A DNA stretch of 64,000 bases from Octopus vulgaris (lineage: Eukaryota). The stretch lies in contig OX597826.1 of NCBI GenBank assembly GCA_951406725.2, positions 40,610,001 through 40,674,000 of the forward strand, given 5' to 3'. The translations under genes and the position numbers were made by a program. Shown in pieces: positions 18,283 to 46,782 of this stretch (position 1 is the first letter of the stretch; each line of letters begins with the position of its first letter). The notes under the pieces are model-generated. The model was not told the origin of the DNA and searched no databases. It saw only the letters and a program-made list of their open reading frames with translations.

Positions 18283-18875
18283 TATAAGATCACCGTAGAA
18301 ATCATACACTGATTTCATAAATGGTAAAAGTGAAAATTACAAATAATAAGGGTGGCTTGTTAGCAATTTACAACCGAAAGACAGAACTATAGATATCAGT
18401 AAAATGACTAAAGGTACTAGTAAGCACCAGCATTGTTAGAAATAAGAGTCAAAACATCTCTTCGCTACGATAAGCACTTATCTTGTAGGTGACGAGGGAG
18501 TTAGCTGGTACTTAGTATCTTTAGTCATTTTAGTGACGTTTATAGTTCTGCTTTTCGGTTGTAAATTGCTAATAAGATACCTTTATTACTTATAATTATC
18601 ACTTTTACCATTTATGAAATCAGTGTATGATTTCTATGGTGATCTTATAAACTGACAAGGCGAGTCAGCTTAACCCAAGGCAAACGGGTAAGAGCCACTG
18701 ACGAGTATTAATATAAATGCGAAATTACTGGTGATCTGGCTATGCCCCGGATGCTGTGGGGAGCTTGACTTCCTTGTCAGTCATAAGATAATTGCTTATC
18801 GTGACAAAAAGATGGTTTGACTCTTACTTCTAGCAATATTGGTGCTTACTAGTACCCTTAATTATTCTAGTAACT
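18283..18875 (+). mobile_element. HHR-containing non-coding unit (~335 bp period) with 5' inverted segment
   Basis: 18283-18418 is inverted to 18514-18649 and 18405-18497 is inverted to 18768-18870. There is terminal redundancy between ~18507 and ~18841, and flanks are TA-rich. Confidence 0.75.
18693..18741 (+). ncRNA. Type I hammerhead ribozyme motif
   Basis: Stem I AGCCA/TGGCT, core CTGACGA, stem II GTATT/AATGC, GAAA, stem III ATTAC/GTGAT, cleavage triplet ATC (after 18736). Confidence 0.8.
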
Positions 18876-20005
18876 ATATATATATATATATATAATATAA
18901 ATTAGAGATAAAACCACTATTATGCAACTCAGACAGTGATAGACATAAAACCAAAACATAAATAACAAATAAAATATATTTTTATAAAACATATAACTAG
19001 ATCTCAAAAATTACAAAAATGAATAATCAATATATATATATATATATATATATGGGTATGATAGACGAGTTAAACAAACATTTAGATTCAGATTAATTAG
19101 GTACTTAAGTTGAGGCACCAGGATTTAGTACGGTATTATCCATACAGTTTCAAAATAAGGTGATTAGAATCAAAATAAGCAACAGGATATCCAGAGATAA
19201 TGCAGTACGATCGTTTCCAGCGACTCCGTTTAATTGAACAATGCAATCATTACATCAATTTAAATGCAGAGCAATCCTTTGCTGCATAAATACATAGAAT
19301 TAAATTAAATTGAATCAGATGGACACATTAGTATAATTTTAGGATAGCATTTAATTTGATATAATGGTTGCATTGTTCAATTACATGGAGTCACTTGAAA
19401 CGATCGTACTGCATTACTTCTGAATATCATGTTGCTTATTTTGATAGTGTGTGTGCGTGTGTGTGTGTGTATAATTGCAGCCTAGAAGGTGTTTATAAGC
19501 CATTTAAAAAACACACAAAAACCGTTAGATTCAATTCAACATTTAAATTTTATTTGTCAAAATATTTTCGTCGCTTTGAAACCGCAACCTGTTTACTGAC
19601 AAAATTCCGTGTTGCATCTGAGAAAGTAACAATTAGTACGTATGTATGCATGTATATATGTATGTGAGTATTTAGGTATGTGTGTAGACGTGTATGTGTA
19701 TGTACATGTGAACGTATGTTTATGTACTGATATGTGTGTCTGTTCAAGTTGTATACATGACTGTTACTCTGTCGAAGATTGTATATATATATATATATAT
19801 ATATATATATATATACATAAAAGTAAATAAATGGTACAACGAAGTACCGATATTTACTGGAAAATAGCGAACGTAATAAATACGACGCTAATGTATAGCT
19901 TCACTGCGTATGTACTAGTAAAGATGCGTGTGTGCAACAAACATGAAAAAAATTGTCTTAGCTCTAGGAAGAACATCTGAAAAATGAAATACCTAGATAA
20001 CGGAT

Positions 20006-20402
20006 AAAATAGTGGTATATATATGTGTAGATGGATAAGTGTATATTTGCGTATACTTTAAGATTATACGAATATATGTGGGTGTGTGTACGTGTTTATA
20101 TTATTGTGTGTGTGCTTGTACACATGTATAGGTAAATTTATATTTGCATGTATGTATCTGAGACATTGTATTGCATTACTATTTTCATATATATATATAT
20201 ATATATGTCCCTCTCACCACCGTCTATCGGTGAATGGATACAATGTCTCAGATACATACATGCAAATATAAATTTACCTATACATGTGTACAAGCACACA
20301 CACAATCATAAACACGTACACACACCCACATATATTCGTATAATCTTAAAGCATACGCAAATATACACTTATCCATCTACACATATATATACCACTATTT
20401 TC
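20006..20402. repeat. Near-perfect inverted repeat (~165 bp arms, ~65 bp spacer)
   Basis: 20006-20171 is the reverse complement of 20237-20402. Confidence 0.85.
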
Positions 20403-20599
20403 GCAGGCAACGATTAAAATTCAAAATTTGTTTTTAAATTTTACATAGTCATATAATATAGAGATGATAAGAAAGGAAAAGTCGACCTCGGCGAAATTTG
20501 AACTCAGAACGTAAAGACAGACGAAATACCGCCCGGCGTGCTAACGTTTCTGCCAGCTCGCATCCTTGTAATATTTTAATCTTTTCATCCTCTCTCCTT

Positions 20600-20775
20600 T
20601 TTTTCTCCTTTTTTTTCTCTCCTTTTCTCTCTCCTTGTTTTTTTCTGTGTCCCTTTCTGTAGAAGAGCGTAGGCTCGAAACGTAAAATACTTTATCTATT
20701 CCTGAGCGTTATACTAATACATCTGTTTGTTTTTGTACACCACCTGTCTTTTTTTGTTTTTGTACACCACCTGTA
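20600..20775 (+). repeat. Short interspersed repeat with HHR-like motif (other copies ~2745-2895 and ~61540-61665, both minus)
   Basis: Three copies share GAAGAGCGTAG(G/A)CTCGAAACGT and the downstream TACTAATACA..TGTTTG..CACCTG motif. Confidence 0.65.
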
Positions 20776-20959
20776 GATATATAATATACATATATCTACA
20801 CACATACATATACTCACACAACACATACATACACACGCACGCTAAAATACATATACATCTACCCATACGTACATACATATTAATCTATGTACACTCATAC
20901 GATTATATATAACTACATATATGTATTTCAGTATTATTCATCTCAACATGTATGTATGG

Positions 20960-21400
20960 ACTTCTACATGTAAATGAGAGAAAGGGGTGATTATAGATGG
21001 GTATTCCTGAGTGGAATCTGGGTGTTACCCCATTCAAATTTACAGTTGAGGGTTGGTTTTTATTCCTGTATACAGACAAGCTTCAGTGACTTGTCTCAAC
21101 ATTGCATCAGTGGGATCTGTAGATAAGATGTCTAACCTAAGTCTCCCTAAGGAACCATAGTGACAGTCTACAGCATGCTGATAGAAGATGAAGTTGGGTT
21201 TTTGTTTAATGTAGTTGTTCAGATGTTCTTTGAACCTATCATTGATGCTCCTAGAAGTCTCACCAATATATGACTCTGGGATACTTAATCTCGTATATAG
21301 TGTTTTTCTTTTTGCAGTTCATATGTGGGTTTGTAGAACATACTACACTATTATTCTGACATATGATTCTATCAAATGGGTATGATTGACTTAATACAGA
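20960..21400 (-). mobile_element. Decayed GIY-YIG endonuclease fragment of a different Penelope-like element
   Basis: Minus-strand translation gives ESYIGETSRSINDRFKEHLNN. Confidence 0.65.
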
Positions 21401-44507: not shown

Positions 44508-44545
44508 TGTCCACTGGTAAATGCATCAGTTCAGATTGCTGCAGG

Positions 44546-44929
44546 AATAATAATAATAATAATAATAATAATAATAATAATAATAATAATAATAATAATA
44601 ATAATAATAATAATAATAATAATAATAATAATAATAATAATGATGATGATGATGATGATGATGATGATGATAATAATAATAATAATAATAATAATAATAA
44701 TAATAATAATAATAATAATAATAATAATACGAAGAAGGAGGGGTGGTCGTGGTGGAGGAGGGGGAAGAAGAAGAAGAAGAAGAAGGAGGGGTGGTCGTGG
44801 TGGAGGAGGGGGAAGAAGAAGAAGAAGAAGAAGAAGAATGATGATGAGGAAGAGGAGGGTGGGAGGAAGAAGAGGAGGGGTGGGAAGAGGAAGAGGAGGG
44901 GTGGAAGGAGGAGGAGGAGGAGGAGGAGG
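44546..44929. repeat. Compound (AAT)n/(GAT)n/(GAA)n/(GGA)n microsatellite
   Basis: Directly visible. Abuts the TAF1 exon acceptor. Confidence 0.95.
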
Positions 44930-45797
44930 TGCTCTTTATTAACCATAAAGGGTTTACATTAAGAAAAACGTTGTGGGCAGTACAGGACAATACAATGTGG
45001 GGTTACATGAAAGTCATGTAAACAATGAAAAGCAATCGATTATAACAACAAAATTCCTCAAAAGAGAGAAACCTACTGGAACTGCTGAAGGAGGTCCCAC
45101 AAGTCCACGACAGTCCTGACCACCAGGGTAAGCACCCTCGCTACTTTGTCTACAATTGCATGCTTAGAGTAGGCCCATTCACTCACGCCATTCTTGCGAC
45201 ATTCACCCACCTTTTAACAAAATTGCTGGGGTGGGAGAAGAACTTCTCTCTCCACCCTCACTTTCCTTTTCAAGAGAAACTTGAAAAAGTTGATGAGGGC
45301 TTGGCCGAAGAGGAAAGTGTTTGTCTTCAAGCCTTTTAGTCTGGTCCACCGCACAACCTCTTTCGCTAAAGCTATTAGGCAAAGAAAACCAGTTGCCCTT
45401 CCCGGACAAAGGAAGGCAGCGGAACTATCTTCACAATGGACTCAGCTGATAGCCGGATCCGTCCCACACGCGACTGCAGGTGTTTGACATAAACCCACAA
45501 GTCAGAAATACTCGGGTACTGAACGAAAGCATGCAGTACAGTTTGGTCGCTCAACTTGCATCTCGGGCAGGCCCGGCTAACTGCACTTCCGTGCCTGGAA
45601 AGTTTATCCCGGACAGGCAATGCCCCGCGGTAGCACTACTGCCAAAGATTTCTGGAAATTATCCGTAGGCTCCGACCCGAAAGTTCTCCGGAACGAGCTA
45701 GCCAACTCATTCTCGTCGATAACCAGAGTCTCCCCGAAAACGTCGTCCCACTAACTCGCCACTAACCCTCTATAGAAAGCCATAGTGGAACTTCCAA
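44930..45797 (-). mobile_element. Second, more diverged Tx1-type LINE 3' fragment
   Basis: LPVRDKLSRHGSAVSRACPRCKLSDQTVLHAFVQ, homologous to 17066-18221. Confidence 0.8.
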
Positions 45798-46084
45798 TAT
45801 TAATGATAATCCCTTCTATCATAGGCACAAGTCCTGAAATTTAGGGGAGAAGGATAGTCGAATACATTGATCCCAGGATTTTTTACTTGTTTCAGTCATT
45901 CGACTGACTGCGGCTATTTAAGTTTAGCGATCAACTTACTTTTTGAAGCTTGATACCGAAGTGCGGCGGTGCGGTACAAATACAGACACACATACACACA
46001 CATCTATGTATATCATATATATATATATATATATATATATATATATATATATATATATATATATATATACATATATACAGTTTG

Positions 46085-46118
46085 GTCCGATGAACGGGAA
46101 CGTGAAACTCAGAGTAAC
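46085..46118 (+). ncRNA. Hammerhead motif, stem I mostly lost
   Basis: GT-CCGATGA-ACG ggaa CGT-GAAAC-TCAGA-GTA-AC, within a ~150 bp island between (TA)n tracts. Confidence 0.55.
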
Positions 46119-46251
46119 AGGTTTTGTTGAATTTTCTGGTGCTTTTAAATAAAGCATATTACTCTACCACTGGTATTTGAGTACTCTTTTTTCCACCTTG
46201 TTTCACATGTATGTGTTTACTCCGGTGTATATATATATATATATATATAAT

Positions 46252-46782
46252 AATAATAAATCTCTGAGCGAGGTATAAACAGTAACTGCTCTATAATATA
46301 AGCGGGATCAGCCATCTGAATGTGGCTAGGGACAGGGCGGGGTGGTGGGGGTGTTACTGATGCATTTAGCCCCAGGCGACTATCGACGTCACCAGAAGAG
46401 CCGACACCATCACGGTGTCCTTGCTAGCCTGCAAAGGGAGATCAGCCTCACCGAAGATACGGATGCTACACACGGACCGGTTTCGAGGTATTTGCCTCTT
46501 GTCAGCGCATGGCAAGCACCGTTCTTCGCTGAGGGACTTCCTGTACAGGCCAGATATATATAGATTTTCACAGTAACCACAGTCACTGGCGTAGAAAATC
46601 CGTTCGATAACAATAATAAATCTCTGAGCGAGGTATAAACAGTAACTGCTCTATAATATAAGCGGGATCAGCCATCTGAATGTGGCTAGGGACAGGGCGG
46701 GGTGGTGGGGGTGTTACTGATGCATTTAGAGGCTGATCTCCCTTTGCAGGCTAGCAAGGACACCGTGATGGTGTCGGCTCTT
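46252..46782 (-). mobile_element. HHR-containing non-coding unit, 360 bp period, with 5' inverted segment
   Basis: 118-bp identical direct repeat (46252-46369 / 46612-46729). 46729-46782 is the reverse complement of 46396-46449. (TA)n on both sides. Confidence 0.8.
46470..46510 (-). ncRNA. Hammerhead-like motif with G8A core change
   Basis: Minus strand reads ATGCG-CTGACAA-GAGG caaata CCTC-GAAAC-CG-GTC-CGTGT. Confidence 0.65.

Follow-up and report, generated by a model that had tools for sequence, protein, structure and literature searches.

Hammerhead-bearing repeats of Octopus vulgaris resemble non-LTR retrozymes and were probably inserted by a Penelope-type enzyme

Introduction

For metazoan non-LTR retrozymes, cleavage and RNA circles have been shown, and Penelope-type elements (PLEs) were proposed to supply the mobilising enzyme; this route is put forward there as a proposal, not as shown (PMC7229834). 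In mussels, the retrozyme units measure 350-390 bp (PMC7229834). More recently, Li, Clavereau and Pollet (2026; bioRxiv 10.64898/2026.07.22.740005) described animal retrozymes as non-autonomous PLE sequences. On the enzyme side, the PAc PLE cuts and extends both strands in vitro, with two internal RNA start sites that define the tail, and the PLE enzyme is predicted to dimerise (PMC11167929). Non-autonomous Chlamys elements form multicopy head-to-tail insertions (PMC8557442, PMC11167929). The origin of the tandem and inverted insertions of PLEs and of the one-sided tail is regarded as an open question (PMC8557442), and a listing of the literature on twin priming with Penelope gave no relevant paper.

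Here, we analyze a stretch of 64,000 nucleotides from Octopus vulgaris (contig OX597826.1, positions 40,610,001 to 40,674,000), referred to as the window. An earlier note, made from the letters of this stretch, had grouped three short units in it into one family of hammerhead-bearing mobile elements and had suggested that they are retrozyme-like or solo pLTR copies, inserted into TA repeats by a PLE reverse transcriptase.

Results

The three units each belong to a different multicopy family of non-coding hammerhead repeats. These families are unrelated but share an architecture, and they do not form a single family. The strongest cross-match, between units 1 and 3, spans 19 bp (E=0.014), in line with the lack of mutual similarity noted before. 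The monomers are far from single-copy, with 156 loci in two families and 38 in the third. Units 2 and 3 repeat every 363 and 360 bp, respectively, and a tandem relative of unit 1 has a period of 336 bp. Each unit holds one type I hammerhead motif and falls within the retrozyme range of 150-450 bp, and arms extend up to 2024 bp, or 5.6 units. The longest ATG-initiated ORF in natural tandems is 60 amino acids.

Unit 1 (locus L031) has a main arm on the plus strand (18503..18875) that comprises one 336-bp period and about 42 bp and stops at the family's first end cluster, followed by (TA)n. Its inverted arm (18283..18503, minus strand, 221 bp) carries monomer positions 114-336, and the outer end of this arm lies 55 nt past the family's usual second end site. 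The type I hammerhead (18693..18741, plus strand) has the core CUGACGA and a 4-bp helix III, with a predicted cut after 18736. The family is old, as unit 1 is 75-82% identical to its 40 best relatives.

Unit 2 (40732..41120, plus strand) comprises one 363-bp period and 26 bp; it ends at a site designated A (41120) against (TA)n, and a second site, B, lies at 40812. It is inserted where a common host repeat ends (40484-40726), which we take to be a SINE. The hammerhead (40903..40947, plus strand) has the variant core CCGAUGA (U4C) and a palindromic helix III, with a predicted cut after 40941; U4C is present in 108 of the 114 cores read in this family.

Unit 3 has its main arm on the minus strand (46247..46729), which comprises one 360-bp period and 123 bp. 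The arm stops next to (TA)n at about 46247-46250, which is site B, and site A lies at 46292. Its inverted arm (46729..46782, plus strand, 54 bp) covers monomer positions 158-211 and has a non-canonical outer end against (TA)n. The hammerhead (46469..46511, minus strand) has a palindromic helix III and the mismatched core CUGACAA, in which A at position 8 faces C3, placing this copy in a mismatched-core subfamily; the predicted cut falls between 46475 and 46474. The terminal redundancy and the (TA)n border at one end, as described earlier, are thus real in all three units. The 5' inverted arms hold for units 1 and 3 only: the inverted match to internal sequence in unit 2 (40724..40733, minus strand, read directly) is 10 bp long, lies partly within the host repeat and is too short for an arm. 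Two further hammerhead-like units, absent from the earlier description, occur at 26940-27400 and 46081-46228.

A motif scan of the window gave four hammerhead hits, compared to 0 to 1 in 30 shuffles (none in 28 of them). Rfam yielded no hammerhead family among the 150 of 173 matches listed at E<=1 and no hammerhead at gathering score in four family loci, and the hammerhead calls therefore rest on a custom descriptor, folding and covariation. In hammerheads related to unit 3, the helices covary over eight natural motifs, which are mutually related and were chosen by motif; five pairs have changed on both sides, and the score was reached by none of 500 shuffles. For the unit 1 hammerheads, covariation does not exceed that of shuffled sequences (133/500 shuffles). 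Natural core variants in the genome comprise C3-G8, C3/A8, U3-A8 and U4C. The C3/A8 mismatch subfamily accounts for 20/92 and 11/45 cores in two locus sets and includes multi-unit arms, and the compensated U3-A8 core forms a clade of its own with three loci. Loss of activity would be expected for C3/A8, given the C3-G8 pairing (PMC3088659, PMC11167929); we found no paper on G8A combined with C3U. The spread and multi-unit arms of this subfamily fit poorly with obligatory cleavage. In addition, there is no significant excess of 5' ends at the predicted cut (4/121 and 2/123, compared to 3.1 expected in each set). Three junctions start one base ahead of the predicted cut, a post hoc observation left uncounted.

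The ends of the insertions are highly regular. Across the families of units 2 and 3, 231 of 255 outer (3') ends lie at site A or B, namely 54/63 and 65/68 in best-hit loci and 55/64 and 57/60 in loci found by hammerhead pattern, after removal of 11 overlapping duplicate loci before the best-hit counts. Both sites lie about 180-230 nt downstream of the predicted cut, 42-55 nt apart. In contrast to these fixed 3' ends, the 5' ends are scattered, indicating variable 5' truncation, and circularly permuted endpoints, as anticipated in the earlier note, are rejected. TA sequence flanks 198 of the 255 ends.

Two arms placed head to head are found at 99 of the 156 loci. Both ends are canonical in 80 of these (16+25+17+22), and all 80 pair A with B, with no A+A or B+B combination among them; the other 19 have one non-canonical end. 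The unit 1 family shows a similar layout, with 18/50 ends near position 281, 10/50 near 229 (a cluster counted by hand) and one of each in 6 of 12 two-armed loci; one overlapping duplicate locus was left out of the analysis behind these counts. Junctions between arms (n=85) overlap by at least one base in 51 cases, are blunt in 9 and contain a gap in 25. Target duplications of 10-14 bp outside microsatellites were found at nine two-armed loci among 15 candidates listed. Opposite arms share their haplotype, differing by 1.1-2.3% compared to 3.6-6.0% between loci. A junction common to loci L287 and L288 is accounted for by a 6-base microhomology.

Autonomous PLEs of the same genome follow the same end rule (11/11, 12/13 and 5/7, counted by hand), with three same-site exceptions among their families. 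The window itself holds a decayed two-armed PLE (7016..14636, minus strand), whose minus-strand ORF has a C-terminal GIY-YIG and is interrupted by a LINE-like RT fragment. Its arms (7016-8020 and 12981-13990) are inverted and 91% identical, with both 3' ends outward; the motif scan detected no hammerhead in it and blastn no match to the units. This PLE is context and not the parent of units 1 to 3. It shows 42-46% identity to intact families that bear Hydra-clade motifs, and a Neptune-like assignment was rejected since these relatives carry the DKT, RWK-like and CxCX5C motifs of the Hydra definition (as given in PMC8557442).

A search for an autonomous partner, in which the best hits of five PLE searches were scored, found no monomer homology to PLE end regions in the sampled families (110, 30 and 29 loci). 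In tblastn with four PLE proteins at 206 loci, no ORF with RT and GIY-YIG was found to lie between the repeats or upstream of them. One lead from loose ends proved to be a fourth non-coding family with the tail of unit 3 (435 exact motif hits). At L021, L151 and L396, the unit has inserted in TA sequence that flanks a PLE. At L276 and L293, a unit-3 arm is joined to PLE coding fragments from families with other 3' ends. The L276 join, in line with an EN fragment and with ends B+B, is explained equally well by a later insertion with deletion. At L293, the arm of a Neptune-type PLE stops at its own site B and is joined head to head, by six shared bases, to a unit-3 arm that stops at site A. At L380, a unit-2-like hammerhead is fused at the cut site to post-cut sequence of the PLE family of L293.

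Multimer insertions also record how their units vary. Minority letters common to a subset of units occur at 16 sites in 9 of 22 multimer loci, compared to 2.5 expected (maximum, 9 in 5,000 simulations with base identity as the only hot-spot factor). Several of these variants are linked, and at L196 they repeat with period 3. Such sharing requires heterogeneous templates or later conversion. Contigs from runs presumed to be RNA cover units 2 and 3; none of the listed sources is recorded as being RNA. In one contig, the end of a unit runs into the start of a unit, an arrangement that genomic tandems also produce, and this contig hence has no bearing on circles or expression.

Discussion

The two-arm pattern with two fixed end points suggests that PLE enzymes paste these repeats in. 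The units are very probably non-LTR retrozymes inserted by a borrowed Penelope-type RT/GIY-YIG enzyme that primes from both strands of one staggered cut, and the retrozyme-like, non-coding, PLE-mobilised and TA-targeted character attributed to them earlier is supported at the 156 loci of two families and the 38 of the third. In the proposed mechanism, the enzyme would make cuts about 12 nt apart on the two strands of AT-rich DNA, after which reverse transcription would start at A from one target 3' end and at B from the other. Each cDNA would extend a variable distance across the hammerhead site, and the two cDNA ends would then pair by short microhomology, followed by fill-in. The template must exceed one cleaved linear monomer in length. 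The earlier suggestion of copying from circular or multimeric RNA stands to that extent. A monomer circle, followed by conversion or duplication between units, has about an even chance, an uncleaved or partly cleaved multimer a somewhat smaller one, and repeated template jumping is improbable.

A possible, if rather doubtful, alternative is that the template is a multimer, linear or circular, that derives from a source array and was not cleaved, and that the hammerhead is dispensable for mobilisation. Subset-shared and cross-arm variants (L199, L202 and L007) and the spread of the mismatched-core subfamily point this way, as does the finding that insertion in vitro is unaffected by ribozyme mutants (PMC11167929). 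However, the arms show no overall rank symmetry, 28 single-arm loci lack common 5' flanks except for a common host repeat, and core and helices are conserved, including the compensated U3-A8 clade.

It is unlikely that a strict retrozyme cycle applies, in which each insertion is written by reverse transcription around a single monomer circle, formed by self-cleavage and ligation, and all later differences arose by independent mutation. Units within an insertion do carry its haplotype, rare variants included, and mismatch in unit 3 is independent of rank from the 3' end (1.34% at the same rank, 1.31% at different ranks). The monomers are strongly self-paired as circles (folding z of -2.6 to -6.6; 40 shuffles each), the short palindromic helix III of units 2 and 3 fits dimer-only cleavage (PMC4209133), and mussel and axolotl retrozymes make circles (PMC7229834). 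Both the excess of subset-shared letters and the spread of C3/A8 speak against this cycle.

A reading of the units as plain pLTRs, or as the truncated 3' ends of autonomous PLEs, is very improbable and already largely refuted. Their footprint is that of autonomous PLEs and the L276 and L293 joins would suit this reading, but the units close on themselves each period, as head-to-tail repeats of 336-363 bp with no ORF between hammerheads. Moreover, PLE coding sequence adjoins the 5' end in only 2 of 55 single-orientation loci (53 have no such join), and the PLE families of L276 and L293 end differently, with 3' ends of their own at 29-30 further loci per family. Amplification as DNA-level repeats (dispersed satellite, MITE or Helitron-like) without an RNA intermediate is the least probable account. 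The tandem and inverted layout and the conversion-like sharing of variants within loci would fit it. Against it stand the fixed 3' and scattered 5' ends, a polarity that follows the hammerhead strand, the pairing of A with B, and the fact that ORF-bearing PLEs leave an identical footprint.

Returning to insertion by a borrowed PLE enzyme, we tentatively propose that PLE integration may be strand-asymmetric twin priming, in which the enzyme halves would be committed to different start sites (A and B), even on two RNAs. L293 might then be such an event, naming a PLE carrier, and L380 a trace of in vivo cleavage and RNA cross-joining. Retrozymes could then be promiscuous passengers, with selection acting on their ribozyme for a role other than insertion, as the spread of the mismatched-core subfamily suggests.

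The earlier note had supposed such a system to be uncatalogued in cephalopods. We found no literature description for octopus or cephalopods, and the main text of a 2026 octopus repeat annotation (PMC13282606) contains no occurrence of ribozyme, hammerhead or retrozyme, but mussel and vertebrate members of the class have been published (PMC7229834; bioRxiv 10.64898/2026.07.22.740005). The class of element is already known, and the discovery value is modest. The mechanistic value lies in short, young, ORF-less copies that leave a countable footprint (80/80 arm pairs A+B, a 10-14-bp stagger and a shared haplotype). Together with natural core variants and intact candidate enzymes in the same genome, this footprint makes twin priming, template form and ribozyme role testable by the published in vitro assay.

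Like the metazoan non-LTR retrozymes (PMC7229834), the octopus repeats are non-coding, self-paired, 150-450-bp tandem units with one type I hammerhead and with target duplications longer than 4 bp (10-14 bp here). In contrast, cleavage is predicted here from sequence, and the fixed twin 3' ends and head-to-head arms are not among the features in the cited parts of that paper. For Li et al., who reach the same conclusion, the evidence is co-occurrence together with homology to pLTRs, drawn from vertebrates, three insects and a coral, whereas the link here is the insertion footprint, and pLTR homology was not found in the sampled PLE families. As in EN+ PLEs (PMC8557442, PMC11167929), the copies are truncated at the 5' end, form partial tandems, lie next to an inverted copy, have the tail at one end and target microsatellites. 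Two internal initiation sites and the cutting and extension of both strands, reported in the PLE papers, are inferred here. The octopus repeats differ from EN+ PLEs in having no ORF and a tail of 42-55 nt instead of 30-40 nt. Finally, where the PLE paper describes a tail often at one end only, the rule of one site per arm is counted here, in 80 of 80 arm pairs.

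Hammerhead-bearing units of the window

A descriptor scan placed a type I hammerhead motif in each of the three units: at 18693-18741 in unit 1 (18283-18875) and 40903-40947 in unit 2 (40724-41120), both on the forward strand, and at 46511-46469 on the reverse strand in unit 3 (46252-46782). Such motifs were near-absent from shuffled windows (none in 28 of 30, one in 2 of 30), which bears out the earlier note's reading of one hammerhead per unit; an Rfam search did not list them. Its view that the units lack mutual similarity also held, as cross-comparison revealed no relatedness. 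Self-comparison showed that unit 2 is terminally redundant over 26 bp and unit 3 over 123 bp. The inverted copy claimed for every unit is evident in unit 1 (221 bp) and unit 3 (54 bp), but amounts to 10 bp in unit 2.

A weaker type I motif, at 27287-27332, is the minimal hammerhead of a further two-armed unit (26940-27400) with a longer right end. This repeat is common and also lies upstream of a Penelope-like element (PLE) ORF in the same orientation (L095). Just left of unit 3, a short hammerhead-like unit (46081-46228, core CCGAUGA) ends in (TA)n and has the helix III of one PLE family (L342-L377).

The window also holds a decayed two-armed PLE (7016-14636), whose intact relatives carry Hydra-clade motifs as described in PMC8557442. 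It has no sequence in common with units 1-3, and the descriptor scan found no hammerhead motif in it. A second copy of its 3' end (15005-15255 and 16541-16767) is interrupted at about 15255-16541 by what we take to be a mariner-like transposase element.

All three units have many relatives in the same genome, and none is single-copy. Among the best 40 candidates scored per unit, identity was 96-97% for unit 2, 94-100% for unit 3 and 75-82% for unit 1. Exact hammerhead pattern matches number at least 404 (unit 2) and at least 93 (unit 3). The longest ATG ORF in natural tandems is at most 60 aa. In computed folding the monomers form good circular structures, in which a long stem has the hammerhead at its tip.

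Insertion ends and targets

Ends were mapped by tiling one period on two sets of loci: 40 + 40 best hits, biased toward long arms, and 40 unit-2 plus 36 unit-3 loci picked by hammerhead pattern. Across these 156 loci, 231 of 255 outer 3' ends fall at one of two fixed sites, A or B (monomer positions 26 and 81 for the unit-2 family, 315 and about 357 for the unit-3 family), and (TA)n adjoins 198 of the 255. Circularly permuted endpoints, anticipated earlier, were not seen. Because the 3' ends are fixed at two sites and the 5' ends scattered, the ends of both families are those of PLEs.

At 99 of the 156 loci two arms lie head to head, their 3' ends facing outward. Both ends are canonical in 80 of these, and all 80 combine A with B; the remaining 19 have one non-canonical end each. 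In the pattern-picked set alone, A+B accounts for 39/39 canonical pairs, where about half would be expected if sites were chosen independently. The old and noisier unit-1 family has 18/50 ends near 281, 10/50 near 229 and a few near 186-195; 6/12 two-armed loci use both main sites, one per arm. Counted by hand, young ORF-bearing PLE families of this genome follow the one-site-per-arm rule in 11/11, 12/13 and 5/7 cases. In 51 of 85 simple cases the arms share one or more bases at the inner junction, and 10-14-bp target duplications occur at nine two-armed loci outside microsatellites.

This footprint suggests that insertion would proceed by twin priming from a staggered cut. PMC8557442 reports a PLE tail often at only one end, and PMC11167929 describes two internal start sites with both strands extended in vitro.

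A fourth non-coding hammerhead family (L142-L161, L156; 435 exact motif hits) has unit 3's A-B tail in common, and at L142-L147 a 119-bp piece is tandemly repeated together with its TA flank. Several further distinct short hammerhead-bearing repeats lie in flanks (L125 8900-9901; L003, L025, L220). Many such families appear to be present in the genome.

Template of insertion

Divergence between the two arms of an insertion is 1.1-2.3%, compared with 3.6-6.0% between loci, and the partner arm is nearest or tied nearest in 19/41 and 24/47 tests. Since the arms are this close and rare variants occur in every unit of their locus, each insertion usually has a single source. That source cannot be a single cleaved linear monomer, because many arms exceed one period (maximum 2024 bp) and 35 span at least two predicted cut sites. 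No pile-up of 5' ends at the predicted cut was found.

We give about even chances to a monomer circle. Copying from a circle predicts no variant confined to some units, but 16 such sites occur in 9/22 multimer loci (2.5 expected). Some of these are linked, and one locus shows period 3. The data could still fit a circle if units were converted or duplicated after insertion. A multimer falls somewhat short of even. A linear one primed at adjacent sites predicts arm-to-arm rank symmetry, and overall none was found. Template jumping we consider improbable. Of the proposed copying from circular or multimeric RNA, a template exceeding one cleaved linear monomer thus stands, with circle and multimer both in play.

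Hammerhead variants

Helices covary across eight natural unit-3-related motifs (related sequences picked by motif, so that the score is not a probability), and no covariation above shuffle was found among unit-1 hammerheads. The 92 unit-3 cores read include 62 C3-G8, 20 C3/A8 and 7 U3-A8. The U3-A8 loci form a clade of their own; this pair occurs naturally as a known covariation (PMC4209133, PMC3088659). The window's unit 3 belongs to the mismatched C3/A8 subfamily, a young one with multi-unit arms. Unit 2 bears U4C; according to PMC3088659 this variant is weaker when assayed in vitro but suffices in a viroid. Helix III is short and palindromic in units 2 and 3, the dimer-dependent type. The covariation and core variants point to selection on the motif. 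Efficient cis-cleavage may be dispensable for insertion, in agreement with PMC11167929.

Candidate partner PLEs

The search reached young intact PLE families with ORFs of 717, 811, about 830, about 950 and 1312 aa, plus a further Neptune-type family; no end sequence common to them and the three monomers was found. At least three families (L166-L195, L236-L265, L342-L377) are probably active, because their roughly 150 copies are near-identical (protein 99-100% over the query) with intact ORFs. Both Neptune-type families have hammerheads of the U3-A8 kind whose palindromic helix III is that of unit 3.

Attachment to PLE ORFs, raised in the earlier note, applies to two of 55 single-orientation loci, where a unit-3 arm directly joins PLE coding sequence, and not to the other 53. 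At L276 (2851-3545), the unit-3 arm lies in line with the endonuclease of a young Hydra-type PLE, and the other arm is that PLE's own 3' end; the ends are B+B, and a later insertion with deletion would fit the join. L293 (1870-3223) is a head-to-head chimera of a Neptune-type PLE arm, which terminates at that family's site B, and a unit-3 arm terminating at site A. Both outer ends lie in (TA)n, and the arms are joined through six shared bases, with five extra. At L380 (2129-2250), a unit-2-like hammerhead is fused at the predicted cut site to what follows the cut at the 3' end of the same Neptune-type family; this is one of 42 such stretches, and the hybrid has a disrupted helix I. Each of these joins is a single case.

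Relation to known retrozymes

In the openly readable literature, taken from the main text in the case of both retrozyme papers, we found neither a cephalopod description of such elements nor a published count of the one-site-per-arm rule. The suggestion that they are uncatalogued in cephalopods is upheld to that extent, but the class itself is known. By sequence, units 1-3 are assigned to the metazoan non-LTR retrozymes (PMC7229834) as new members of a group already argued in bioRxiv 10.64898/2026.07.22.740005 to be non-autonomous PLE sequences. Within this known class, their insertion footprint is sharp and mechanistically testable.
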